Positions 5,463-63,796 of a stretch of DNA of 64,000 bases are shown here, piece after piece. Source of the stretch: Fibrobacterota bacterium (lineage in GTDB: Bacteria > Fibrobacterota > Chitinivibrionia > Chitinivibrionales > Chitinispirillaceae); assembly GCA_023436205.1 (NCBI GenBank), contig JAEZKC010000055.1:9542-73541 (forward strand). The letters are read 5' to 3'. The notes under the pieces were generated by a model. That model had not been told where the DNA came from. It was given only the letters and a program-made list of their open reading frames with translations, and ran no database searches. The position numbers and the translations under genes are program-made. The number at the start of each line of letters is the position of its first letter. The first letter of the stretch is position 1.

Positions 5463-6854
5463 CTATACCGCTTCCAGCTGCTTCATATACGAACTGTTCT
5501 GCCGGACCCAGTCCGAAACTATTCCCTTACCCGCCAGTTTCATCACCGAGGGGAAAAATGCCTGAAAACGCGCCTCCGAGGGATAGTTGCGCAACCGACC
5601 ACTGAAGAGCTTTGCCCCGGCATTCATGAAATCTTTTAAAGCTCCGTTGTAGTTGTAAAAGGAACGGAAACAGGAAACCATGCCTTTCTGAAGCTGCAGC
5701 GCACTCATGTTTTTAGGTTTGAAGACCACATGCAGTCCATCATAAAATTCCCAGTTTTTATGCAGCAGTCGTCCTTCAGCCTCAAATTTACTGAAAACCT
5801 CTGTGCCCGGAAGTGGGGTAAGCACATTACACTGGATGTAGTTTAATCCGCTCTTGCGGGCAAATTCGCTTGTGGCATGGAATATATCGGGGCTGTCAGG
5901 ATCGTTACCGAGCATGAACATTCCGTGAACCTGTATGCCTATGGACTGAATTACTCTGATGGCGGTACTTATGTCCTCCACGGTCTGCTTTTTCTTCAGA
6001 TCGGTAAGGCTCTGAGGGTTGATCGATTCAAGCCCGATGTAGAGGATCAGGCATCCCGCTTTCTTCATCTTAGCCAAAAGCTCGGGGTTTCGAGCGATCT
6101 CGGTGCGTACCTGTGCGCTCCAGGGACGGCGAAACCCGTACTTGAGCATGCCGTCAAGAATCGCGTCGGTGCGTCGCAAATCTGCCGCAAAATTATCATC
6201 AACAAAGAAAATCCAGCCCTTGTCATAACGCATCACCTCTTCAAGTACTCTCTCGGGACTCTGCGTACGGTAATTGCGTCCGAACATCTGGGTCACTGAA
6301 CAGAAATTGCAGGTAAAGGGGCAGCCTCTGGAGGTCATAACTGGCCAGATTTTCACATTCTCCCAATCTTTCACCAGAGAAAAATCGGGAATGGGGATGC
6401 TGTCGAGGTCAATAAGCTGAGGTCCCTTGATAATCTTATCCTTGAATTTCCCCTCCAGAAGATCCCTGAAAATCGGCTCTGCCTCACCGCACACCACCTG
6501 GTCGAAATCTTCGGAAACATCGTGGGGAAGCATACTGGCGTGAATTCCTCCGATTAATGAACGGCAGGGTAGACCATTGTCGCTTCGGAGCTGTCGGTAC
6601 CTGCGGGCGATCTGACGCCCCCGCTCAACCGTGGAGGTCATGCTGGAAACAGCGAGAATATCTGCCTCCAAAAGCTCCTTATCACTCACTTCCCGTTTGA
6701 GGATGTTTTCGTTGAGGATTTGCACCTGCCATCCCCACTGCCTTGCCATGGTACCCAGGTTCACCGGACCAAGCAGAGGGATACTCATGAATTTGGAATA
6801 GACATTGAACTGGGACCCCATGGGTTCCACGAACACAAGGCTTCCTTTGGACAC
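5463..6854 (-). CDS. B12-binding-domain radical SAM protein (class B)
   Basis: CxxxCxxC cluster motif in SRGCPFTCNFCSV. It is preceded by a roughly 150-aa Rossmann-like N-terminal region typical of the cobalamin-binding domain. Confidence 0.8.
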   Translation of the reverse strand: MSKGSLVFVEPMGSQFNVYSKFMSIPLLGPVNLGTMARQWGWQVQILNENILKREVSDKELLEADILAVSSMTSTVERGRQIARRYRQLRSDNGLPCRSLIGGIHASMLPHDVSEDFDQVVCGEAEPIFRDLLEGKFKDKIIKGPQLIDLDSIPIPDFSLVKDWENVKIWPVMTSRGCPFTCNFCSVTQMFGRNYRTQSPERVLEEVMRYDKGWIFFVDDNFAADLRRTDAILDGMLKYGFRRPWSAQVRTEIARNPELLAKMKKAGCLILYIGLESINPQSLTDLKKKQTVEDISTAIRVIQSIGIQVHGMFMLGNDPDSPDIFHATSEFARKSGLNYIQCNVLTPLPGTEVFSKFEAEGRLLHKNWEFYDGLHVVFKPKNMSALQLQKGMVSCFRSFYNYNGALKDFMNAGAKLFSGRLRNYPSEARFQAFFPSVMKLAGKGIVSDWVRQNSSYMKQLEAV

Positions 6855-15908: not shown

Positions 15909-16004
15909 TTTCTAGCCGCTTTCAGGTGGATTTGGGTTGGGTATGTCTTCCATTCATTATATAAAACGGGCAGGCGGATTACAAAGAAAACTTTTTTGGG
16001 AAAA

Positions 16005-16123
16005 GGCCGGAGGCCGGAGATCAGAGGCCGGAGATCAGAGGCCAGAGATCAGAGGCCGGAGATCAGAAGCCGGAGATCTGAAGCCGGAGATCTGAAGCCG
16101 GAGCCGGAGCCGGAGCCGGAGAC
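16005..16123 (+). repeat. Tandem array TR1: six 14-nt units GGCCGGAGATCAGA (variants), then four GCCGGA hexamers
   Basis: Read directly: ggccggagatcaga x6 with point variants (ggccagag.., agccggagatctga), then gccgga x4. Intergenic. Confidence 0.9.
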
Positions 16124-16164
16124 TGGAAGTTCCGGGCAAGAGCGGCAGCGCGTCAGTTTTAGCC

Positions 16165-16253
16165 GTGAACTGACAGACTCTGATGACTATTTTCGCTGAT
16201 TTTACAGTGCGGGAGAAGGTACTGGTGACAGACAAGGCGTCTTCGCCGTTAAC
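16165..16253 (+). repeat. Dispersed ~90-nt element, copy A
   Basis: cgtgaactgacagactctgatgactattttcgctgattttacagtgcgggagaaggtactggtgacagacaaggcgtcttcgccgttaac. It shares the 18-mer AGGCGTCTTCGCCGTTAA with 5 other copies and a 25-mer with copy D. Confidence 0.85.
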
Positions 16254-16323
16254 AGAAAAAATTTTTCCTAAACTTTTCCACATTTCTGCCGATCTTCACT
16301 ATAACGCACTTTCAGGAGGTTTT

Positions 16324-16639: not shown

Positions 16640-18049
16640 ATGCACATGAAAACGATCGGGCGGGACCTCACGGAAGGCAGCATTCCCCGTCACCTGCTGT
16701 CTCTTGCGATCCCCATGCTTATAGGAAACCTGCTCAATACCGGCTACAGCATCATCGATGCCATGTGGATCGGGCGAATGGTGGGCAGGGAGGCTATCGG
16801 AGCCATTGCGGTGAGCTTTCCGGTAGTGTTTCTTTTCGTGGGGGTGGCAAACGGGGCGACATTGGCCACCACTATTCTGGTTTCTCAGTTTTTCGGTGCC
16901 AAAAATCACACCATGGTCCGCCGTACCGTGGGTACCTCCTTCAGTCTGGCGCTTATCCTGGGGGTGGTGTCTGCCGCCGCCGGGATTATGCTTTCGGGGT
17001 CTATCCTTAAGTGGCTGGGTACGCCCGAATCGATCATGCCGCTGGCCTCCTCTTATCTGAAGATTGCATTTCTGGGATTCCCGGTCATGTATCTGAGTTT
17101 TCTGGTGACCTCGATTCTGCGCGGTGTGGGGGATACCCGTACCCCTCTTTATTTCATGGCCGCGGGGGTAGTGATCAACGCGGTGCTGGATCCCCTCTTT
17201 ATTATTGGCATAGGCCCTCTTCCCCGCATGGGGCTGGATGGAGCCGCCTGGGCATCCATTATCTCCGCCTTCGCCGCGGTTCTTCTGGGCACCCTATATC
17301 TCAACAGCAAGGGAAGTGATTTTGCCTTCAATCCGGCCAAACTATCCGCCGATAAAAAGGTTGCCAGGCTTATATTTTCCATCGGGTTGCCATCCATGAT
17401 CCAGCAGTCGGCCGTGTCGCTGGGGATGGTGTTCATTGCTTCATTTGTAAATAAGTTCGGAGCCGTGGCCGCTGCAGCCTACGGAGCCGCAGGGCGGATC
17501 GATTCGGTGGCGTTTCTCCCGGCCATGTCCATTGGTCTTTCGGTTTCCGCCATTACCGGGCAGAACCTTGGGGCAGGCAAGGTGGATCGGGTGCACAGCA
17601 TTTTCAAATGGGGCCTGCTCATGACCGCCTCGATTTCCCTTTTCCTTTCCATTTTCTTTCTTTCCATTCCCGATCTTCTGCTTTCCATCTTCACCACCGA
17701 TCAGGAAGTGATCGCCATCGGCAGAAACTACCTGCGGATCGTGGGGCCATCCACTCTCTTTTTCGCCATCATGTACGTTTCTAACGGTGTTATCAACGGG
17801 GCCGGTCACACGCTCACCACACTGGCCTTCACTATCTGCGTCCTGTGGGGGGTGCGTATTCCCATGGCTGCGTTTCTATCCCGCACCTTTTTGGGTATCG
17901 AAGGGATCTGGATCGCTTTTGCGGTAGGGTTTTTCACTATCATGTGCGTGAGTCTCAGCTGGTATTTTTCCGGGCGATGGAAAAAGCCGGTGGTCAGGGC
18001 CGGGCTTAAAAACGCAATAGCCGCCGAACCTGCATCCGCGGAAGCCTGA
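16640..18049 (+). CDS. MATE-family multidrug/toxin efflux transporter
   Basis: 469 aa and about 12 TM helices. MATE-type N-terminus (LTEGSIPRHLLSLAIPMLIGNLLNTGYSIIDAMWIGR) with an internal duplication. Confidence 0.85.
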   Translation: MHMKTIGRDLTEGSIPRHLLSLAIPMLIGNLLNTGYSIIDAMWIGRMVGREAIGAIAVSFPVVFLFVGVANGATLATTILVSQFFGAKNHTMVRRTVGTSFSLALILGVVSAAAGIMLSGSILKWLGTPESIMPLASSYLKIAFLGFPVMYLSFLVTSILRGVGDTRTPLYFMAAGVVINAVLDPLFIIGIGPLPRMGLDGAAWASIISAFAAVLLGTLYLNSKGSDFAFNPAKLSADKKVARLIFSIGLPSMIQQSAVSLGMVFIASFVNKFGAVAAAAYGAAGRIDSVAFLPAMSIGLSVSAITGQNLGAGKVDRVHSIFKWGLLMTASISLFLSIFFLSIPDLLLSIFTTDQEVIAIGRNYLRIVGPSTLFFAIMYVSNGVINGAGHTLTTLAFTICVLWGVRIPMAAFLSRTFLGIEGIWIAFAVGFFTIMCVSLSWYFSGRWKKPVVRAGLKNAIAAEPASAEA

Positions 18050-18078
18050 ACCGACAAGGTTTGAAGAAAGCTGTTCTG

Positions 18079-18168
18079 GTTAACGGCGAAGACGCCTCGA
18101 CTGTCACCTGGCGTATCTCCCGCATGGAAGCATTAGCAATCTTAGCGAAATGAGCTCGTGCTTCACGA
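18079..18168 (-). repeat. Dispersed ~90-nt element, copy B (left half diverged)
   Basis: The plus strand reads gttaacggcgaagacgcctcgactgtcacctggcgtatctcccgcatgg...cacg. The reverse complement aligns to the family consensus. Confidence 0.8.
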
Positions 18169-18257
18169 TTTTTGGATCGGAAAGAGGGCCGATTTCGCTA
18201 TCCAGAGTTAAAATTGCCCCCTTTTTTTCGCGCTTTTTCGTTCCCCTCTTCCACTTC

Positions 18258-18292
18258 GATATTCAGGATTCGTTATTCGATATTCGATATTC
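18258..18292 (+). repeat. Heptamer array GATATTC AGGATTC GTTATTC GATATTC GATATTC upstream of an OMP gene
   Basis: Read directly. It lies about 112 nt upstream of the ATG at 18404 and is followed by an A-run. Confidence 0.85.
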
Positions 18293-18403
18293 AAAAAATC
18301 TCTTCCCTCCCTGCTCTGCTCATCCCCGTTTTCCGGCATGCAAATCGCTAGTTTCTTCTCTCATGAGTGCTGAACCGTTTCACGTTTCTACGAGGAGGAG
18401 CTT

Positions 18404-18856
18404 ATGACGGCACTGAAGAGAAGTTTCCTGGCGGCGGCGATTTCGGTGATTTCCCTATGGTCTGTGGCCGGGGCTATTGGTGTTGGAATTCCTTTTGGTT
18501 TGCAGGGGGGGCCTGAAGTTGGAGTCCGACTCCATTTTACCGATTTATACGCGCTGAATGCTTTTGTTTCTTTCAGCGCAGCCGGAAGTCAGTCAGATTT
18601 TGTGGTCAATCTAGATAATATTTTCTACATTGCAGAAGAGGGTAACCTTAAGCAGTATTTAGCCGCCAATATCAGTTCCGATTTTGACCGGTTGCTTGGT
18701 ACAGCCGGGTTATATGGGCTTCAGTACCGGTTTAATGACTACCTCGACGTTTATGGCCAGTTGGGGTTGGGACTTTTATTTCAGGAGGGTGCCGACACCC
18801 AGGTCAGCACCACCAGAAGCGGCCTGGGGGTCATTTTCTACTTGGTGAGAGAATAG
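18404..18856 (+). CDS. Small outer-membrane beta-barrel protein (150 aa)
   Basis: GAGGAGG SD, signal peptide (..AAISVISLWSVAGA), and an alternating beta-strand pattern rich in G/Y/F. Confidence 0.6.
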   Translation: MTALKRSFLAAAISVISLWSVAGAIGVGIPFGLQGGPEVGVRLHFTDLYALNAFVSFSAAGSQSDFVVNLDNIFYIAEEGNLKQYLAANISSDFDRLLGTAGLYGLQYRFNDYLDVYGQLGLGLLFQEGADTQVSTTRSGLGVIFYLVRE

Positions 18857-18884
18857 CGCCAACAGTTACAGTCTTCCGTTCTGA

Positions 18885-18911
18885 AAGCCCGGCCTCCGCC
18901 GGGCTTTTTTT
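18885..18911 (+). terminator. Rho-independent terminator
   Basis: AGCCCGGC-ctcc-GCCGGGCT followed by TTTTTTT. Confidence 0.85.
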
Positions 18912-19073
18912 ATCAAGCGGGGGCGGGCCTCGGTTAAGTCCGCCTAATCAGGCGCTTAGCTCTTGTGAGGTGTGCGATTCTAATCGGTTATATTCGGATG
19001 CGGGGACCCTTAACGTGCTTATCGGGTACTCTTAGCGCAGGACACAAGATGCTGGCTTTCTCAGGTCCTCGCT

Positions 19074-19162
19074 CGTGATTGATAAACTCCGATGACTATC
19101 TTCGATAAGGATCCATAGCGGGAGAGAAATCTGGTGACCTGAGAGGCGTCTTCGCCGTTAAC
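19074..19162 (+). repeat. Dispersed ~90-nt element, copy C
   Basis: cgtgattgataaactccgatgactatcttcgataaggatccatagcgggagagaaatctggtgacctgagaggcgtcttcgccgttaac. Confidence 0.85.
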
Positions 19163-19267
19163 AGAAAAAAATGTCTTCAGAACCACCTGACCAGTGAGGA
19201 TTACATTTTGACTCCGGTTGACCTATTGTGTGCGGGTCTAGTGGATCGCCCGCTTCGCGCCGGTCCA

Positions 19268-20214: not shown

Positions 20215-20254
20215 TCCTATCCGCACTAATGCCTACCTCTATCACCAGTCTCAG

Positions 20255-20384
20255 TCTCCGGCCTCTGACCTCTGACCTCCGACCTCTGACCTCTGACCTC
20301 TGACCTCCGGCCTCTGACCTCCGGCCTCTGACCTCCGGCCTCTGGCCTCCGGCCTCTGGCCTCTGACCTCCGGCCTCCGGCCTC
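20255..20384 (-). repeat. Tandem array TR2: 17-18 heptamers CCTCTGA/CCTCCGG. The reverse complement gives the 14-mer GGCCGGAGGTCAGA.
   Basis: Read directly. It is the same unit as TR1 with one substitution, in the opposite orientation. It overlaps the stop codon of the GH57 gene (20383-20385). Confidence 0.9.
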
Positions 20385-21999
20385 ACTCTTCCCCATACAC
20401 CCCGTAATCAATCTCCGGAAACAAATTATCATGCTCCTCAAGAAGCCTCAGAAACTCCTCATCCACATTTCCTCGCTTCACCTCTTCATAAAGACGCAGA
20501 AAATTGGAAATGTGCTCTTTTGTGCGACGTTCGGCATACTGCACCGTGGTGCCGGTTTTCATTATAAACGCCCAGTCGCTCGATTGGGCCAGAAGGAGTT
20601 CTCGGGCCATCTGGTTGAGTGCTCTGCGAAGAATCCCCTGGGCATTTCTGAACTCTCTGGCGCATTCCACCATGCGGTCTTCCATCCGGTGAAGATGCCG
20701 ATAGATCCAGTCATTGGTTTCATTGAGCCAGACTTGAGAATAACCGCCCTCTCCCCAGCTTGAGAACGAGGGGGCGGCGGTCTGGTTTTCCGGGTAGAGT
20801 GCAAGATAGTCGGACGGGGTGATCAATTTATATGTATTCTGCTCGAGGGCACTTTTTCTGATCAGGTAGTTCAGCCAGTCCGGACCCTCAAACCACCAGT
20901 GTCCGTAAAGTTCAGCATCGTAGGGCGCCACGATACACGGTTGTCTGTCCATGAACTGTTTTGCGTTTGTAATCTGGCCCTGTCGGTTGAACATGAAATT
21001 CGCAGCGTGCTCCGCCGCCACTCTGAGCGCTTCCTGGCGGTTGTAGGGGAGTTTGTCGGGACTGCTTTTGTCAGTTATGCGGCTGTATTTGATTCCGGTA
21101 TTGATCCGAATACCCGCCGGGTCGATATAGGGTTTTATATATTCCATGTCAAGATCAAACCCGATATCCTTGTGAAACTCCCTGTAGGAGGGGTGACCTG
21201 GGTAGCCCACCTCGGCACTCCAAACCGAGCGTGACGATTCCACATCGCGGCCGAAGGCCGCCACAGGTGCCTCTTTACAGAAAAGAGGGGCGAATACTCC
21301 GTATTGCGGTCGGGGATCGGCATAGAGTATCCCGTGAGTTTCCATAAAGAAGAAACGGATTCCTGCATTGTAAAGCATCTTTTCCAGCCCGGGATAGTAG
21401 CCGCATTCCGGAAGCCATATTCCCCTGGGCTTTTTACCGAAAAAACGTTCATAGGACTGAACCGCCACCTCTATTTGAGCCCGCACTGCATTGGGATTTT
21501 CCTGCATAATGGGCAGAAAACCATGGGTTGCCCCGCAGGTGATTATCTCAAGAACCCCCGCATCCTGAAGTGAGCGGAAACCATTTAGAATATTACGATC
21601 ATAATTCTCTTCGAAAATGTATTTACACTGTAGAAACCTTTCCAGATACATCCGGGCGTTCCTGCTCGTTTGTTCATCATACCTGGTGCGCTTGATTTCT
21701 TTTTGGGCAAGTTCGATTAATCTGTCAATGTAACGGACGTATCTTTCCTGTAAAAGCTGGTCGCTGAGCATCGAGCAGAGCGGGGGAGTGAGCGACATGG
21801 TGATTCTGAAAGGGACCTTGTCACTGAGCAGATTGTTGAAAATTGCAAGAAGCGGTATATATGTTTCAGTGATCGCCTCAAAGAGCCAGTTCTCCTCCAT
21901 CATGTAATCTGTTTCCGGGTGGCGGACGTAGGGGAGATGGGCATGAAGCACGATGCAGAGGAAACCGTTCGGTGGCATCTGTGCGGTGCTGTTGGTCAT
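20383..21999 (-). CDS. GH57-family 1,4-alpha-glucan branching enzyme
   Basis: GH57 N-terminal motif FLCIVLHAHLPYVRHPE..EENWLFEAITETYIPLL, plus WLPECGY and the helical C-terminal domain (LAQSSDWAFIM). Confidence 0.85.
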   Translation of the reverse strand: MTNSTAQMPPNGFLCIVLHAHLPYVRHPETDYMMEENWLFEAITETYIPLLAIFNNLLSDKVPFRITMSLTPPLCSMLSDQLLQERYVRYIDRLIELAQKEIKRTRYDEQTSRNARMYLERFLQCKYIFEENYDRNILNGFRSLQDAGVLEIITCGATHGFLPIMQENPNAVRAQIEVAVQSYERFFGKKPRGIWLPECGYYPGLEKMLYNAGIRFFFMETHGILYADPRPQYGVFAPLFCKEAPVAAFGRDVESSRSVWSAEVGYPGHPSYREFHKDIGFDLDMEYIKPYIDPAGIRINTGIKYSRITDKSSPDKLPYNRQEALRVAAEHAANFMFNRQGQITNAKQFMDRQPCIVAPYDAELYGHWWFEGPDWLNYLIRKSALEQNTYKLITPSDYLALYPENQTAAPSFSSWGEGGYSQVWLNETNDWIYRHLHRMEDRMVECAREFRNAQGILRRALNQMARELLLAQSSDWAFIMKTGTTVQYAERRTKEHISNFLRLYEEVKRGNVDEEFLRLLEEHDNLFPEIDYGVYGEE

Positions 22000-34892: not shown

Positions 34893-35552
34893 ATGCTGGA
34901 GAATTTAAAACCTGCTTTTAATAATGTATTACGACCGATAATGAAAGTCTTCGCCTGGGCGGGAGTACATCCCAATCATCTTACCATTGCGGGGGTGGCG
35001 CTGTTTGGTGCTGCCGGGTATCTGGCCTCCACCGGGAAATGGCACTGGGCCTTGGGAATGCTGATCGCCGGTGCTCTCATGGATGGGCTGGATGGTCAGC
35101 TCGCGCGGGAATGCGGCAAAAAGTCCGTTTTTGGAGCAATCCTCGATTCAAGCTGCGATAGAATCACTGAAATGCTGCTTTTATTGGGTTTACTGGTATT
35201 CTACACACATCATTCCCTGTATAGCGGATGGGGTGTTTACCTCTGTTTTACCGCCATCTCCGGCTCTGTTCTGGTGAGTTATGTAAAGGCTCGCTGTGAA
35301 GGGGCTGGCGTGAGCTGCTCTCGAGGGCTGCTCCAGCGCCCCGAGCGTCTGATCCTTCTTGGTCTCGGCCTGCTTCTGGGCCCCAAGTCCATGGTCTGGA
35401 TTCTGGTTCTGGTGTCTGTTCTGGCCCTGGTCACCGTGATGGAGCGCCTCTTCATGGCCTCAGTCCAGTGCCGCTTCATTGATCAATCTAAAAATGCCGG
35501 CTCTTCAGGTTCGGGTGAGGCTCAAGCGAAGCAGTCCTCCGCCGAGGCATAA
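34893..35552 (+). CDS. CDP-alcohol phosphatidyltransferase family protein
   Basis: Motif DGLDGQLAR(x8)G(x3)D(x3)D (DGLDGQLARECGKKSVFGAILDSSCD) and multiple TM helices. The last ~9 codons lie in tandem array TR3. Confidence 0.8.
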   Translation: MLENLKPAFNNVLRPIMKVFAWAGVHPNHLTIAGVALFGAAGYLASTGKWHWALGMLIAGALMDGLDGQLARECGKKSVFGAILDSSCDRITEMLLLLGLLVFYTHHSLYSGWGVYLCFTAISGSVLVSYVKARCEGAGVSCSRGLLQRPERLILLGLGLLLGPKSMVWILVLVSVLALVTVMERLFMASVQCRFIDQSKNAGSSGSGEAQAKQSSAEA

Positions 35553-35659
35553 GGACTTTGTCCGATCTCGTGCATGCTGAGCAGTCCTCGGTCGAAGCAT
35601 GATCTGCCCGTTCCGTTCGTGCTGAGCAGTCCTCGGTCGAAGCATGATCTTATAATTTA
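35526..35659 (+). repeat. Tandem array TR3: about 2.8 copies of a 45-50-nt unit
   Basis: The exact 30-mer gctgagcagtcctcggtcgaagcatgatct occurs at 35576 and 35621. A diverged first unit (gcgaagcagtcctccgccgaggcataagga) starts at 35526. The array abuts repeat copy D. Confidence 0.85.
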
Positions 35660-35748
35660 TTAACGGCGAAGACGCCTCGTAGGTCACCAGTACCTTCTCC
35701 CGCACTGCAGCCTTATCAAAGATAGTCATCAGAGTTTATCAAACACGA
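35660..35748 (-). repeat. Dispersed ~90-nt element, copy D
   Basis: The plus strand reads ttaacggcgaagacgcctcgtaggtcaccagtaccttctcccgcactgcagccttatcaaagatagtcatcagagtttatcaaacacg. Confidence 0.85.
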
Positions 35749-35797
35749 GGTTTCGGAAATTTTGTCGGCAATTAATCCAGCTTTTGGGAATAAAAAG

Positions 35798-36694
35798 TTA
35801 AGTTGCGATTCTCCTCCGTAACTCATTAATGGCTTCCTTCGATAATCCTGTATACAGTGCTATATTTTCATCGCTTTCACCATTTTTGATCATCACTATT
35901 GCGATCTCGGTAGTTCTTTTATCTCTACCCTCGACTTTACCTTCGAGTTTACCCTCAAGCCTACCCTCATTTCTACCCTCTTCCTTCGCGGTATCCAATG
36001 AATTTTTAAGATCGCGATAGACCTTGAGGCTATCTTCATAGGCATCGATTTCTACTGGACTGAATTTGGCGATCTCGGCAATACTGAAAAGCTTCTCAAA
36101 CACCCGTTCCTGCAGTTTTGCCGGGCGGCTTTGAAGCTTCGGCAGATTCTTGAAAATATAGAGCCACTTATCGAAACGGGTTTCCAGCTCATCTTCACTT
36201 TTGTTGAAATTGGGCATTTGCAGATAAATAAAGGTGAGCTTATCGTAAAAAACATTTTTCTTATCTGTATCCATCAACTGTACATGGCTGACTATGGTTT
36301 TATCCCTGTTTTCATCTTCAAAGGTGAAATCCAGAATCGCAATCGTGTACACTGCTTTCAATTCATAGTCCCAGTCTCCCTGTTCAGCTTGTTCGGCTAT
36401 GGGAAACGTGGAATAATACACCGTTCTGTCCTTGAAAAAGCGTTGCTTTGTTTTCTGTATCTCAACAATAAATTTCTCGCCGCGGTCATTCTCACAGTAA
36501 AGATCGAATATCGCTTTCCGATCGATCGCAGTAGTACCGAGATATTCGGTTTTCTTATAGTTGAGATCTTTTATATGCTGCTCGCCTTTAAGCAGCTCGT
36601 TGAGAAAATCCATGAGCAGATCTTTATTGATCTCCTCTCCGAAAATCTTCTTGAATCCGAAATCGGTGAAAGGGTTTATGTACTTTTCTTTCAT
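35798..36694 (-). CDS. Rpn-family recombination-promoting nuclease / putative transposase (PD-(D/E)XK, PDDEXK_2-like)
   Basis: N-terminus MKEKYINPFTDFGFKKIFGEE..., then D..E.K-type core (IFDLYCENDRGEKFIVEIQK). C-terminal (L/V)EG(K/R) tetrapeptide repeats. Confidence 0.75.
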   Translation of the reverse strand: MKEKYINPFTDFGFKKIFGEEINKDLLMDFLNELLKGEQHIKDLNYKKTEYLGTTAIDRKAIFDLYCENDRGEKFIVEIQKTKQRFFKDRTVYYSTFPIAEQAEQGDWDYELKAVYTIAILDFTFEDENRDKTIVSHVQLMDTDKKNVFYDKLTFIYLQMPNFNKSEDELETRFDKWLYIFKNLPKLQSRPAKLQERVFEKLFSIAEIAKFSPVEIDAYEDSLKVYRDLKNSLDTAKEEGRNEGRLEGKLEGKVEGRDKRTTEIAIVMIKNGESDENIALYTGLSKEAINELRRRIAT

Positions 36695-36906
36695 GCTTAT
36701 ATCCAGGTATTTAGGCGATCTGGTTTGAAAAACACTGTTTTTCGGAGCGTAGTACTAAATTACGATAATGGGGGGAGAAGTGGTAAGGTTATTTAGGATA
36801 TTGCCTTCGTTTTGCTGGTTTCAGCCATTGTTTTTTTAAACTTATCTTGGTAGTCGAAAATTCCTGAAGAAAACAGAAAAAGTTAGTCCGTCCCCATCCT
36901 CAATCC

Positions 36907-37021
36907 CGTGGTCGATAGACTCCGGTCATAACATAGCAGGGAGACCCAAAGCCTGTCCTGTGCAAAGTTGAAGGGTCCGGAGATGCCTCCCCGCACCGGA
37001 CAGAGGCATCTTCACCGTTAA
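36907..37021 (+). repeat. Dispersed element, copy G (degenerate, with internal insertion)
   Basis: cgtggtcgatagactccggtcataacatagcagggagaccc...caccggacagaggcatcttcaccgttaa. The core 18-mer has 2 mismatches. Confidence 0.65.
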
Positions 37022-37026
37022 AGAAA

Positions 37027-37401
37027 ATGGTTTCGTTTTTTGAAAGCGAAACATGCCTTTCATTCAAACTCGCGGCTTATTTTGGAGAGATCATCAAAGC
37101 GGAAAAATGCGGTCACTGTTCCGTGTGCCTCTCGGGGAAACGAATGATGGAACCTGCGGCGGCACTTATTCCTGTAACTTCCCTGGATCTGCGGGACCTT
37201 ACTGAGCAATTTACCGCTTTGGCAAAAGACAAGGCCACCCCGATTGCCCTGACACGTTTCCTGTGCGGAATTACTTCGCCCATATTCACGCAACTTAAAG
37301 CCTCAAAGATGCGCGGGTTCGGATCGCTCGAGGAGTACCCGTTTAGCGATGTTATGTCGGCTGTTATGAAAGAGTTTGCCGAGCCTGTTTTGTGCAGATG
37401 A
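37027..37401 (+). pseudogene. 3' remnant of a RecQ-family helicase gene (Zn-binding/C-terminal region only)
   Basis: CLSFKLAAYFGEIIKAEKCGHCSVCLSG resembles the RecQ Zn-finger region (..YFGE..CG.CD.C). No helicase core precedes it, and the ORF begins 6 nt after repeat copy G. Confidence 0.5.
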
Positions 37402-37495
37402 TTATCAGGGTATCTTATTGACTTGATTCAGAATGGCGGCAAAGAGTTATCTGTTGCCGCCTGGTTTTGTCGAGGAGGGGAGTTTGATTTCACAC

Positions 37496-38476
37496 TCATT
37501 TGTTTACCGAAAACAGTTTCTTATTCGGTGGATACTTAGGGTAAGGTAGGGTTGAATTGAGTTTTTCCCCATTTAAAACTCTAAAATAAAGATTTACATA
37601 ATCCGCAGCCATCTTTTTCGCACTGAAGCACTCGGAAGCGTACTCATGGCAAATCTTGCCGTCATAGCCGGCGGCTTCCTTCACGGCTCTCACCAGTTCA
37701 TTCATGCTGTTCGAAACGAATCCAACCTCATTTGATATAAGTTCCGGCAGTGCTCCAAAACCTGTTCCGAATACAGGGCATCCGAAGTAAAGACTTTCGA
37801 TTATCGCCAGTCCAAACGGCTCGGGCCATAACACCGGAAAGATGAGTCCCTTGGATGTATTCAGCACTTTGTCTTTTTCTTCTCCTCCGATCATTCCCTT
37901 GAAGGTAACTTGAGGCGAAACGGTAAACCTGAAACCCATTTTGAAATTAAGACGTGTGCCACCTACCACGACCAGCTTCTCTCCCGCCTTCCGGGCAATT
38001 TTGATAGCCCCTTTTACGTTTTTCTTCCTCCATGCAGCATTACCTAAAAAGTGGAAATGTGTTCGTTTATTTTCAAGATCAGGTGTTGAATATTCACTCC
38101 AATCCAGCCCGTTATGTACAAAAACATCGGAGCTAAATCTGGATGCATGATCTTTGGATACGAAAACGGAATTTATGTGGAACTGAGCCGGGGCTTTATT
38201 GACATGAACAGTGACAATGGATGGCTTGCTAATATCTTCTCTGGGTGTGAAGTGGAAGTGAACAACGTCGCATTCCTCGGGGATCTGGTCGTTTATCGGC
38301 AAACTGCTGTTATATGGAACTATGGTCGCATGAGAGCATTTTGACCCGGGATCGGTCAGATAACAAACGTTATGGCCTAACTGAGAAAGCCCCTTCCCCA
38401 AACCCCATACAACTCTTTCGATTCCACCATAGGCCATAACCGGCATTTTTGATAATTCAACAATGCAGATGTTCAA
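37496..38476 (-). CDS. Glycosyltransferase family 4
   Basis: GGIERVVWGLGKGL.. at the N-terminus and EPFGLAIIESLYFGCPVFGT (E-x7-E region). Confidence 0.75.
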   Translation of the reverse strand: MNICIVELSKMPVMAYGGIERVVWGLGKGLSQLGHNVCYLTDPGSKCSHATIVPYNSSLPINDQIPEECDVVHFHFTPREDISKPSIVTVHVNKAPAQFHINSVFVSKDHASRFSSDVFVHNGLDWSEYSTPDLENKRTHFHFLGNAAWRKKNVKGAIKIARKAGEKLVVVGGTRLNFKMGFRFTVSPQVTFKGMIGGEEKDKVLNTSKGLIFPVLWPEPFGLAIIESLYFGCPVFGTGFGALPELISNEVGFVSNSMNELVRAVKEAAGYDGKICHEYASECFSAKKMAADYVNLYFRVLNGEKLNSTLPYPKYPPNKKLFSVNK

Positions 38477-38541
38477 ATCTTCCTCATTTCACATCATTAG
38501 GATTTATATGCGCAAAAGGTAAAATGCACAACCCGACTGGT

Positions 38542-38577
38542 AAAAATAAAAAAGGGCAGACCTTTCAGTCCGCCCTT
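38542..38577 (-). terminator. Rho-independent terminator
   Basis: The minus strand reads GGGCGGAC-tgaaag-GTCTGCCC followed by TTTTTTATTTTT. Confidence 0.8.
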
Positions 38578-38600
38578 TAAATCTCTTTTAATACTAACTC

Positions 38601-39050
38601 TTAGCGAGCCAGTCTCTCCATGGTTTCCTTGTCCACGTTCTCCTTGAGCGCATCTTTGAAAGAGCGGTCGAGAGTGATAGGGTCGGCATTAGGATCGTCC
38701 ATGTCGATAATGTACACCGGAGTGGGGTTATCGAGGTAACCGACAACTTCTGCGCTCTCGAACACAAATGATCGGCTCTTGGCATCGTTCTTCACCTTGG
38801 TGACCAGATCCTTCTCAATCCAGCCTTCCTGACCCGATGATGCTCTTACTTTAAGATGGTTTTTCTTGGTTTCGATAATAGTGAGATAATCGCTTGGGCC
38901 TACAGAAAAAATCGGACGCTCATACGCCTCTCTGATCTCGTTCTGGTAGATTCCCACATCATTCTTCGTCGGCTGAACCACCTTATCCTTCTGAGCGAAC
39001 ACGGTGACAGCTGCAAACGCAAGGATCAGTGACCACTTGCTTAAACGCAT
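38601..39050 (-). CDS. Secreted protein with SH3b-like region (149 aa)
   Basis: Signal peptide (..AAVTVFAQ). DYLTIIETKKNHLKVRASSGQEGWIEKDLV resembles bacterial SH3 domains. Confidence 0.45.
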   Translation of the reverse strand: MRLSKWSLILAFAAVTVFAQKDKVVQPTKNDVGIYQNEIREAYERPIFSVGPSDYLTIIETKKNHLKVRASSGQEGWIEKDLVTKVKNDAKSRSFVFESAEVVGYLDNPTPVYIIDMDDPNADPITLDRSFKDALKENVDKETMERLAR

Positions 39051-39273
39051 AATTAGCTCCTTTTGATGTTTTTCCAGTCGTTCGAAACCTTACTGTTTAG
39101 TATAATATTTTCTATTTTTAAAAGCAACAGCATCAAAATAAAAAACTTACAACTCTACCTACTTAGTGGCTACAGTATCCATAACTGTTCGTTTTATTGG
39201 ATTTCTTTTTAGCCATTATTAAGCTGCTTTTCATGCTCCTGTCCTTCGAAAAAAAGGTGAACTGGATTCCTTT

Positions 39274-39363
39274 GTTAACGGCGAAGACGCCTTGTCTGAC
39301 ACCGGGTATCTACCTCACTGGGAAGCCTCCGGTGTACATAGTCATCAGAGTTCATCAACCATG
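39274..39363 (-). repeat. Dispersed ~90-nt element, copy E
   Basis: The plus strand reads gttaacggcgaagacgccttgtctgacaccgggtatctacctcactgggaagcctccggtgtacatagtcatcagagttcatcaaccatg. Confidence 0.8.
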
Positions 39364-39418
39364 ACTGTCCAGAACGGAACTTTGGCCCCCGTAGTCGTAA
39401 ACCGGTCTGATCCGAATT

Positions 39419-39506
39419 CGTGATGATACACTCCGATCACTATTTTTGAAAATCCTTCAGTGCGGGAATTGGTGCCGGTGACCTGTAAGGCGTCTTCGCC
39501 GTTAAC
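39419..39506 (+). repeat. Dispersed ~90-nt element, copy F
   Basis: cgtgatgatacactccgatcactatttttgaaaatccttcagtgcgggaattggtgccggtgacctgtaaggcgtcttcgccgttaac. Confidence 0.85.
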
Positions 39507-39577
39507 CAGAAGTCCTTACTCTTTTTAGAGCAGGAGTAGCCAGGTTTGCCTTACACCCTGACTACTCTCACGCTCCA

Positions 39578-44906: not shown

Positions 44907-46049
44907 TTATAAATCTTCTTTATTCCTCAAACCATCAATTATGTCACACTCAAGACCTGTAACTTTTCTGATCGTCTCGTTATCCATTCCCAGTGAAATC
45001 ATATTTCGAGTTATATTCTGTTCATACTGAACAGCTTTCAGTTCGAGCTGATAAACTTTCTTCTCAAGCTGCTGAATCTTTTGCTCGTATTCTCGAGATC
45101 TCTGTTCACACTGCTGAATTTTTAACTCGTATTCGCGAGATCTCAGTTCATATTCCTGAATTTTCAACTCGTACTCTCGAGATCTCTGTTCATATTCCTG
45201 AATTTTTAACTCGTACTCTCGGAATTTCTGTTCATATAACTGAATTTTCCGTTCGTTTTCACTCTGAGCATTATCAAGTTCCTCCTTGAAAAACTCCCTT
45301 AGTACTTCATCAAGTATCTGTTTGGTTTCTTCATCATATTCCATCACCACACCTCTGATCGTATTTATGATCTCGGGAACCAGTTTTCTGGGCGCGGCGG
45401 TCATAATATAGAGCAAAAAGGCTTTTAAATAGCCTTTTGCTTCTGGCGCACCATCAAACTCTCTAAATATTACGGCTATCTCGCCCAGTTTCTTTGGCAG
45501 CTGAGGGTGGTGAATATGTTTGAGAGCTAAAAACAGAATTCTCAAGTAAGGTACGCCGGTTATGCATTGATCGGGCATTCTGGACAGGTCTAAAACTACA
45601 AAAGTCAGATCGGGGAAATTGGGCTGCAAAGAGAATGGTCTCGTACTCAGCATGAAATCTTCTCCCATTGCCCAGCCAGAGTGTGTCTGGTTAATTACGA
45701 TAGAGAGCACCTTGGGGTTTTTGGCATTTCTTCCGTATTGACGTCTGTGATACTGAAGAATCATGGCAATATTTTCAACTAATTGAGACCCTGTACCGTG
45801 GTCTGCATAACTCTTATGCTCGAAAAGTATATAGGTGCGCTTTGTGCGATCATGATTCAGCGCTGAATAAACAACATCGGAGAAGAACTCGAGCAGATCG
45901 GTAGTGATATGGCTATCTTTGACCGATTCCAAGGTGTCTAGATCAATTTCCGCCTTGTCTTTATCGCTCACGTAATTCCGGATGAAACTACGGACAACCG
46001 GTTTTCGGCTGAATGCTTCCTTGAAAAGCAGATCGTGAGGATGATTCAA
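44907..46049 (-). CDS. Rpn-family recombination-promoting nuclease / putative transposase paralog with coiled-coil repeat tail
   Basis: N-terminus MNHPHDLLFKEAFS.., D..E.K core (DVVYSAL..RTYILFEHKS), then about four 14-aa repeats REYELKIQEYEQRS. No copy of the ~90-nt element flanks it. Confidence 0.7.
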   Translation of the reverse strand: MNHPHDLLFKEAFSRKPVVRSFIRNYVSDKDKAEIDLDTLESVKDSHITTDLLEFFSDVVYSALNHDRTKRTYILFEHKSYADHGTGSQLVENIAMILQYHRRQYGRNAKNPKVLSIVINQTHSGWAMGEDFMLSTRPFSLQPNFPDLTFVVLDLSRMPDQCITGVPYLRILFLALKHIHHPQLPKKLGEIAVIFREFDGAPEAKGYLKAFLLYIMTAAPRKLVPEIINTIRGVVMEYDEETKQILDEVLREFFKEELDNAQSENERKIQLYEQKFREYELKIQEYEQRSREYELKIQEYELRSREYELKIQQCEQRSREYEQKIQQLEKKVYQLELKAVQYEQNITRNMISLGMDNETIRKVTGLECDIIDGLRNKEDL

Positions 46050-63076: not shown

Positions 63077-63796
63077 TTAGTTAAACTGCAGTTCCTTATA
63101 ATCACAACTCCCGTAGTGTGCGGTAAATACCTTATTTAATGAAGGGATGTTTTTCAATTTCAGTATAGATCTTTTCTGCAGTTCGCCATCCATGTTGAAT
63201 CTGGCATTGAAAAGTTCAGCTCTATTGCCATCAAGTTTAATGCAATCACCGGTAAAGAGATACCTGTCATTTACAACGTAGCATATGCTTCCCGGCGTGT
63301 GGCCCGGTGTGGAAACCCCTTTAACAATGCAATTGCCCAGCGTGATAGGCTCTTCTGATAACAATGTGTAAGGAACAGAAAGCTTGTTGCGCATTCCGGG
63401 ACCGCGCGCGACGTTTCCGTTTACCATCTGCTCTTCTTGTTTTGACAGGTATACTATTGCATCATCGAAAATGGAGAGCCCGGCTGTATGGTCGAAATCA
63501 GAATGGGTTAGAAAAACAGCCTTGACTTGAGCTGGACTGATTCCCAGCTTTTCCATTTCTGACAAAGCCTTTTTATTGCTGGTTCCGGCATCAATGGCAA
63601 AGTATTCTTCATCACTGCAGGCCACCAAATATAAATTCACGAAATCAGTTTTGATTGCATAGAGGTCATCGGTAATCTTTCCCGACGGCAAAGGGCGCAT
63701 TGCATTGAGTTCTGCTCTATACTGAAAAAGGAAGAAACCTGCTGCGGCTATAAACAGAACCAATACTGCAGAAACAACTATCAGTACTTTCTTCAT
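63077..63796 (-). CDS. Membrane-anchored metallo-beta-lactamase-fold hydrolase
   Basis: N-terminal TM helix. MBL motif variant LTHSDFDHTAG (HxDxDH in place of HxHxDH), then TPGHTPGS. Confidence 0.7.
   Translation of the reverse strand: MKKVLIVVSAVLVLFIAAAGFFLFQYRAELNAMRPLPSGKITDDLYAIKTDFVNLYLVACSDEEYFAIDAGTSNKKALSEMEKLGISPAQVKAVFLTHSDFDHTAGLSIFDDAIVYLSKQEEQMVNGNVARGPGMRNKLSVPYTLLSEEPITLGNCIVKGVSTPGHTPGSICYVVNDRYLFTGDCIKLDGNRAELFNARFNMDGELQKRSILKLKNIPSLNKVFTAHYGSCDYKELQFN

Follow-up and report, generated by a model that had tools for sequence, protein, structure and literature searches.

A 64,000-nt stretch of DNA (hereafter the window) from a Fibrobacterota bacterium of the Chitinispirillaceae (assembly GCA_023436205.1, contig JAEZKC010000055.1, positions 9,542 to 73,541 of the forward strand) carries seven copies of a short intergenic repeat, two of which, termed arms D and G, face each other in inverted orientation across an Rpn-family nuclease gene (rpn) at 35660-37021. 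On balance, we regard it as probable that this repeat represents a new lineage-specific family resembling REPINs (hairpin-forming doublets of repetitive extragenic palindromic, or REP, sequences) and miniature inverted-repeat transposable elements (MITEs), and that rpn is an unrelated gene of the defence type which lies between two of its copies. Most likely, the arms are not the ends of an Rpn transposon and belong to a separate small repeat family. Rpn proteins are widespread and frequently annotated as transposases, and we know of no DNA target for them. The original prediction for this locus had read the nuclease gene and its arms, with TTAA at both outer edges, as suggesting a genuine mobile or recombination module. 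The closest relatives of several window proteins were found in metagenome-assembled genomes (MAGs) of Chitinispirillaceae.

The 17-nt core of the repeat, GGCGTCTTCGCCGTTAA, occurs seven times in the window with at most three mismatches, as compared to 0.08 occurrences expected by chance. A profile was built from six good copies and searched over the window with nhmmer, and an extended model which includes the tail beyond the core was also run. The profile recovered seven copies, six with an E value of 1e-23 or better and arm G with E=0.01, and no further match in the window was better than E=1.2. The repeat is about 95-125 nt long, its copies are all located within 16-40 kb of the window, and no more copies were present in the 9-kb right-hand extension of the contig. 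From left to right, the copies are 16171 (plus strand; profile 16167-16257, with tail 16155..16292), 18080 (minus; profile 18075-18171, with tail 18044..18177), 19080 (plus; profile 19071-19166, with tail 19064..19196), arm D (minus; profile 35656-35751, E=1.5e-28, or 35656..35762 by local alignment to the repeat unit labelled C), arm G (plus; profile 36905-37022, whole arm 36902..37022), 39275 (minus; profile 39271-39366, E=1.4e-23, whole copy 39271..39383, without a tail) and 39424 (plus; profile 39416-39510, with tail 39411..39541, E=1.5e-25 and 9.6e-33). All seven are intergenic. Their orientation along the window is + - + - + - +, and an alternating order would arise by chance in 2/128 cases; the orientation of the arms relative to neighbouring copies is thus not random, an outcome on which the original prediction had depended. 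Because of this alternation every segment between two copies lies between inverted arms, and the bracketing is not specific to rpn.

The conservation of the repeat is concentrated in the core. A 26-nt core (...GAGGCGTCTTCGCCGTTAAC) is identical in six copies and in the one copy found at locus L011, which belongs to a Chitinispirillaceae MAG of another species (nhmmer 4e-9, core 100% kept). It consists of a 4-bp GGCG/CGCC hairpin followed by the palindrome GTTAAC, and GTTAA is part of the core in 7/7 copies. Outside the core the copies are only 51-78% identical, and the arms within a pair are not mutual nearest relatives, e.g., arm D is closest to 19080 and 16171. Since copies were detected by their core, this comparison of core with flanks is biased; even so, neutral decay to the extent seen in the flanks could not have left six perfect 20-mers. 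Complete retention of the core next to such flanks suggests that it is functionally constrained, or that it is the part which an enzyme must recognise. Judged from their divergence, the copies are old. An exact-core scan of 185,579 species genomes, JGI metagenomes and viral contigs returned one true homologue, the L011 copy, and the remaining matches covered the 19-mer alone and occurred at chance frequency. Heptanucleotide tandem repeats were also observed near a repeat copy both in the window (TTCGATA x5, 18255-18292) and at locus L011 (GCGAATA-like, 6180-6225), and short arrays with a 7-nt period are apparently frequent between genes in this lineage.

Three pairs of copies in (-,+) order, with their cores outward, are present, and they enclose an outer-membrane-protein (OMP)-like gene (18080-19163), rpn (35660-37021) and almost nothing (39275-39506), respectively. 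The OMP-like gene (18404-18856) encodes 150 amino acids, has its own terminator and lies inside the pair 18080(-)/19080(+), of which 18080 is the left arm and 19080 the right. The 'empty' unit that had been proposed near rpn is real: it is a head-to-head doublet of 232 bp at 39275-39506, formed by 39275 as left arm and 39424 as right arm, which nearly abut, and it folds into a long DNA hairpin (z=-5.1). In the opposite sense, the core-inward pair 16171(+)/18080(-) encloses a small open reading frame (ORF) and a MATE efflux gene, and the further core-inward segments hold a 16.5-kb housekeeping stretch and, in the other case, a helicase remnant together with the genes of a glycosyltransferase and of a 149-aa protein; copy 16171(+) has no (-) partner to its left. 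The same arms therefore enclose an OMP-like gene or nothing as well as rpn, and together with the decay of arm G and the related Rpn loci that have no arms (see below), this does not support the claim that the unit is an Rpn transposon.

Several features were observed around the left-hand copies. A 14-nt unit that has a sub-period of 7 nt (GAGGCCGGAGATCA, or CCTCTGACCTCCGG as its complement) forms two mutually inverted arrays, which are located at 15996-16121 and 20242-20409 and are about 81% complementary to each other over 100 nt. The 4.1-kb block between the two arrays contains three repeat copies, the MATE pump and two OMP-like genes. This block and the adjoining OMP-like and HDOD genes (about 14.4-20.4 kb) interrupt an alpha-glucan gene cluster, with GlgE, TreS-Mak and a TreZ-like gene on one side and a GH57 branching enzyme on the other.

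The bracketing of rpn by inverted copies D(-) and G(+) was confirmed. The D core, TTAACGGCGAAGACGCC, lies at 35660-35676 and its inverted partner, GGCATCTTCACCGTTAA, with two mismatches at 37005-37021; the inverted repeat 35660-35678/37003-37021 spans 19 nt, of which 17/19 (89%) are complementary, and both ends are TTAA. The description of these arms as perfect or near-perfect terminal inverted repeats is justified for the outermost 19 nt, but further in arm G is recognisable only by profile search. Arm D is well preserved, whereas G is degenerate, as had been noted before: its core contains two G>A changes, some 26 additional bases are found within the arm, the match to the profile covers model positions 4-94, and its terminal part scores E=7e-4 with the extended model. 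The arm is thus decayed and the rpn gene that it helps to enclose is intact.

The TTAA edges are present at both ends of the D-rpn-G unit, but TTAA lies inside the core of every copy and a target duplication could not be shown. Similarity runs about 22 nt past TTAAC in 16171(+), 18080(-), 19080(+), 39424(+) and the L011 copy, with a tail consensus of roughly C(C)AGAAAAAATnTCTTCAAAC, and TTAA is therefore not demonstrably the edge of an element or a target-site duplication. In D and the 39275 copy, the family similarity is lost within 3-4 nt of TTAA (the extended-model alignment of D ends at 35657), and the profile alignment of G reaches 37038, where its ambiguous tail overlaps the helicase coding sequence. 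No direct repeat other than TTAA was found around the D-rpn-G unit. We also looked for a palindromic 'empty target', with one tail on each side of TTAA, and found none; the tail is therefore more readily understood as belonging to the repeat than as a favoured target.

The outer end of arm G adjoins the 3' remnant of a RecQ-like helicase gene (37018..37401, plus strand; ORF 37027-37401), which corresponds to the last ~120 of ~650 codons. Residues 1-35 of the remnant match positions 31-66 of the RecQ_Zn_bind profile, and in an exhaustive profile search the full-length relatives had 637-664 aa and the remnant aligned at about residues 515-650 (the last ~115). The helicase homology detected by tblastn starts at 37018, inside the TTAA of arm G, and the starting methionine of the remnant ORF is a conserved internal residue of the helicase family. 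Public annotations continue to list this pseudogene remnant as a gene of 124 aa. Neither motif searches nor tblastn found a helicase core or the first ~530 codons of the gene in the window or in locus L027; the gene therefore lacks about 1.6 kb, and it is broken at the outer end of G. This end is a true rearrangement breakpoint, so the ends of the repeat mark real rearrangement breakpoints. Since the homology starts inside TTAA, this tetranucleotide or the GTTAAC palindrome may be a preferred breakpoint. The far side of D contains a CDP-alcohol phosphatidyltransferase gene and a 45-nt triplication and no part of the helicase, therefore one clean insertion of D-rpn-G into a helicase gene does not explain the locus. 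The triplication comprises units of 45-50 nt at 35519..35650 (plus strand) with a GCTGAGCAGTCCTCGGTCGAAGCATGA core, and separates arm D, from which it is 9 nt away, from the 3' end of the phosphatidyltransferase gene; in other copies this is the position of the tail. It has a single site in the window and no significant fold, and a short-read contig breaks inside it.

The block at 35660-39290, which contains rpn, the helicase remnant and the glycosyltransferase gene, has a GC content of 0.40-0.49 as compared to 0.51-0.57 in its flanks, and is bounded by D and the 39275 copy, which are in direct orientation and 3615 nt apart. The best matches of the glycosyltransferase have 54-58% identity, and the few named ones are mostly from Bacteroidota. 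This block of 3.6 kb (35.66-39.3 kb) may be a small decaying acquired islet. No orthologous empty site was found, either by way of the RecQ fragment, for which there were three word-sharing relatives, the two short and informative ones being cut by contig ends, or by way of the glycosyltransferase, for which there was no relative above 58% identity. The window is also contained in a 118-kb metagenomic scaffold (ENA ERZ28604730, LEMO22-1 scaffold_38), and three assemblies of the locus showed the same arrangement. The unitig L021 of an independent short-read assembly corresponds to window 36682-39506 and is unbroken through G and the 39275 copy. It stops directly behind the TTAAC of the 39424 copy, at 39506; a near-identical copy at another place or a rearrangement of the core could account for this end. 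The opposite end falls within the rpn ORF, by 13 nt, and that assembly does not contain the exact Rpn protein, suggesting that its graph branches in rpn because of paralogs or variants in repeat number.

The rpn gene (35798..36694, minus strand) encodes a 298-aa PD-(D/E)XK nuclease and, judged by its sequence, is an ordinary intact member of the Rpn family. The protein matches PF12784 (PDDEXK_2) with 255 bits over positions 1-229 of 229, and TIGR01784, named 'Rpn family recombination-promoting nuclease/putative transposase' in NCBIfam, with 98.1 bits (cutoff 52.1) over positions 2-273 of 273. All residues invariant among ten homologues are kept, including D11, D64, E78, Q80 and K81, residues which are presumably catalytic by analogy with D63/E82/Q84 of RpnA (PMC5350276). 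The GC content of the gene is 0.41 versus 0.48 for the window. Tandem repeats of 12 nt (35925..35980, minus strand) encode five EGxx repeats (EGRN EGRL EGKL EGKV EGRD) in the C-terminal part of the product, as compared to two or three in homologues at 87-88% identity, and they match the hypervariable four-amino-acid repeats of RpnL/RpnS (PMC10400941). In E. coli, the nucleases of this family (RpnA-E, RpnL/RpnS) are toxic, have an antitoxin encoded within their own gene and act in phage defence (PMC5350276, PMC10400941). The protein studied here shares with them the superfamily, TIGR01784, the conserved acidic and Q/K residues, the C-terminal four-residue repeats of variable number and a low-GC islet context that fits horizontal acquisition, but it belongs to the PF12784 branch, unlike the E. 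coli proteins of PF04754. PADLOC and PDB sequence searches with rpn gave no match, and its protein was found in a single genomic context.

Other Rpn loci do not have the arms. The closest homologues of rpn are located at L025, L024, L031 and L026 (88%, 87%, 76% and 72% amino acid identity, respectively), two of which are named Chitinispirillaceae MAGs. Neither arm profile detected an arm at these four loci, the flanks being very short for L025 and upstream in L031; an inverted-repeat check of the L024-L026 flanks revealed no other terminal repeat, and the DNA similarity of all four loci to the window was restricted to the ORF. The second Rpn paralog of the window (44907-46049; PF04754, TTG start, GC 0.41) was confirmed by profile and flank searches to have no flanking arms or repeats, in agreement with the original prediction. 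That prediction had named the lack of arms at other Rpn genes as evidence against cognate Rpn ends, and such a lack is what was found at the four closest loci and the paralog. The paralog itself carries four to five tandem 42-nt repeats which encode a coiled-coil-like repeat of 14 residues, YELKIQEYEQRSRE, and the public gene call covers just an 86-aa C-terminal piece, so this second gene may be disrupted or mis-started. It has been reported that rpn genes have no terminal repeats and no target duplications and probably hitchhike (PMC10400941), and the rpn copy described here departs from this generalisation in that it does sit between inverted repeats.

No regulatory or RNA signal was common to the copies. 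When consensus RNA structures were predicted for either strand, whether or not the tail was included, the invariant 4-bp hairpin was the sole element and there was no covariation, and Rfam and tRNA scans of the arms, at gathering and E-value thresholds, had no match; a role of the repeat as RNA was dropped for lack of covariation and of an Rfam match. Promoter and terminator scans revealed no signal shared among the copies, and their position relative to neighbouring genes is inconsistent, being upstream, downstream, convergent or divergent. The absence of a covarying RNA, an Rfam family, a shared promoter or terminator and a fixed gene direction points to a role at the DNA level.

Based on these results, the basic form of the repeat would be the head-to-head palindromic doublet as seen in the 39275-39506 unit. 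The core would most likely be the recognition or cleavage site of a trans-acting transposase or recombinase encoded outside the window; the genes in about 73 kb of the contig (window plus right-hand extension) contained no transposase or recombinase domain. Breakage and joining at or near the TTAA of the core would explain the loss of similarity there in some copies, the position of the end of G next to the truncated helicase gene, and also why neighbouring copies have persisted in inverted orientation alone, as the DNA between directly repeated sites would be deleted. The rpn gene would lie between two copies as a passenger or by coincidence and not as the transposase of the repeat. As to the original suggestion of a genuine mobile or recombination module, a mobile or recombinogenic repeat is plausible, because the family is real, its orientation is not random, its core is invariant and G marks a breakpoint, but not as an Rpn transposon.

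Some observations weigh against this reading. Two of the three head-to-head pairs hold a gene, which is unusual for simple MITEs or REPINs and for which coincidence alone is insufficient, and all copies cluster in 23 kb, which is unexpected for a repeat dispersed over the genome. D, and possibly also G, ceases to resemble the family exactly at TTAA, as would an excised or inserted unit bounded by TTAA, and the invariant core of old copies could reflect a host function, e.g., a protein-binding regulatory site. Moreover, the search for an Rpn association and for a cognate enzyme covered a single contig of the genome.

Four other explanations account for parts of these data. The first, which we consider unlikely, is that pairs of arms are terminal repeats for an unlinked transposase, with rpn and the OMP-like gene as passengers of a cassette mobilised in trans, much like the mobile insertion cassettes of the Bacillus cereus group. 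Three head-to-head pairs with the core near their outer ends and with rpn, an OMP-like gene or nothing inside would fit such cassettes, an invariant core is expected of a transposase-binding end, and Rpn genes are thought to hitchhike (PMC10400941). However, no second copy of either cassette is known, each of the two proteins has one genomic context only, a target duplication cannot be demonstrated, most copies have a tail past TTAAC and thus do not physically end at the core, the arms are old and diverged, and no cognate transposase was seen in the 73 kb searched.

According to the second explanation, a site-specific recombinase whose gene lies elsewhere acts on the cores, as in shufflons or invertons, so that inverted segments flip and directly repeated ones are deleted. 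It would account for the perfect alternation across seven copies, for the invariant and partly palindromic core, for the OMP-like surface-protein genes and for the location of the 232-bp unit upstream of a gene whose product may be secreted and has a weak SH3-like match; the end of the unitig after the TTAAC of 39424 is also where alternative tails would branch after crossover in the core. We regard it as improbable, since there is no recombinase gene within about 73 kb of the contig, several segments are housekeeping operons whose inversion has no obvious use, the three assemblies agree on one arrangement, and the unitig break could equally stem from a near-identical copy elsewhere in the genome. 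The third explanation, a duplicated host cis-element (an operator, a protein-binding site or a small RNA) with no role in DNA mobility, is given equally little weight. The core and the short blocks TCGTGA, GCGGGAGA and GGTGAC are kept across two species while the rest drifts, which resembles purifying selection at each site, but covariation and an Rfam match were absent, the invariant hairpin is just 4 bp, orientation and position relative to neighbouring genes are inconsistent and one copy marks a gene truncation.

Very improbable in our opinion is an autonomous cut-and-paste element TTAA-D-rpn-G-TTAA, with Rpn as transposase, the arms as terminal inverted repeats, TTAA as target duplication and the 232-bp unit as deletion derivative. 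The match of the outer 19 nt of D and G, both ending in TTAA, the stop of similarity at TTAA in D and possibly G, the interruption of a gene at the end of G and the existence of the 'empty' doublet are all in its favour. Against it, no 5' part of the helicase gene lies beyond D as a simple insertion would require, the arms also bracket the OMP-like gene and, in the opposite sense, the MATE operon, neither the paralog nor the four closest Rpn loci have arms, the decay of G and the 51-78% identity of the arms speak against recent activity, similarity continues past TTAA in four to five copies, and no autonomous transposase with the PD-(D/E)XK Rpn fold is known (PMC10400941).

By its head-to-head palindromic doublet, the repeat falls into the general class that also comprises REPINs, ERIC elements and MITEs. 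Enterobacterial repetitive intergenic consensus (ERIC) sequences, or intergenic repeat units, are intergenic imperfect palindromes of at least 100 nt, with enlarged versions that carry internal insertions of tens of bases. The repeat described here is likewise an intergenic imperfect palindrome which is sometimes enlarged by inserted internal sequence, but it has no sequence similarity to ERIC, and it encloses whole genes rather than tens of bases. As in MITEs and the mobile insertion cassettes derived from IS231 in the Bacillus cereus group (PMC6542083, PMC5444012), the arms enclose nothing or passengers and no transposase, and the sequence near the ends is best conserved. Unlike in those elements, there is no demonstrable target-site duplication and no known parent insertion sequence that shares the ends, the arms are long and strongly diverged, and most copies are similar for about 22 nt past the supposed end. 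Being short, non-coding, multi-copy and intergenic, with inverted arms capable of forming a hairpin, the repeat has the characteristics of MITE- or REPIN-like sequences; it does not have those of an insertion sequence, since the only ORF of the unit is that of Rpn, and no transposase of this class is known to act on its own ends.

The likeness is also evident to the REPIN/RAYT (REP-associated tyrosine transposase) system of Pseudomonas and Enterobacteria (PMC3116915, PMC3337134), in which short intergenic repeats are propagated as a hairpin-forming head-to-head doublet, a single-copy gene of nuclease or transposase type lies between inverted copies, and old, vertically inherited sequences keep a conserved recognition motif. 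However, RAYT is an IS200-like Y1 transposase and the gene flanked here encodes a PF12784 PD-(D/E)XK Rpn protein, REP sequences are 20-40 nt long with a GTAG motif and the arms are about 100 nt without GTAG, and the flanking is not specific to rpn. The further possibility that the Rpn nuclease is itself the trans-acting enzyme of the repeat, a PD-(D/E)XK analogue of RAYT that would recognise the invariant GGCGTCTTCGCC hairpin and cut the adjoining GTTAAC, finds some likeness in the position of rpn between two inverted copies, as RAYT genes lie between REPs, but has very little probability in our judgement, and Kingston et al. reported only non-specific activity for Rpn nuclease.

Apart from these subjects, a chromosomal metallo-beta-lactamase-fold protein is encoded at window 63077-63796, with Anti-Pycsar_Apyc1 among its precomputed Pfam hits, and its gene adjoins that of a sigma factor of the extracytoplasmic function (ECF) type.

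A real pairing of Rpn with terminal repeats would be a notable advance, and if Rpn did act on the core, the latter would be the first defined DNA substrate for Rpn proteins; the evidence obtained here argues against such a pairing. As it stands, the finding adds one more REP/MITE-like family and no new mechanism. The repeat is probably a palindromic family in its own right, not described before, from a Fibrobacterota lineage without cultured members, and its invariant core, its strict alternation and its breakpoint that truncates a gene make it a reasonable candidate for a site of recombination or transposition.

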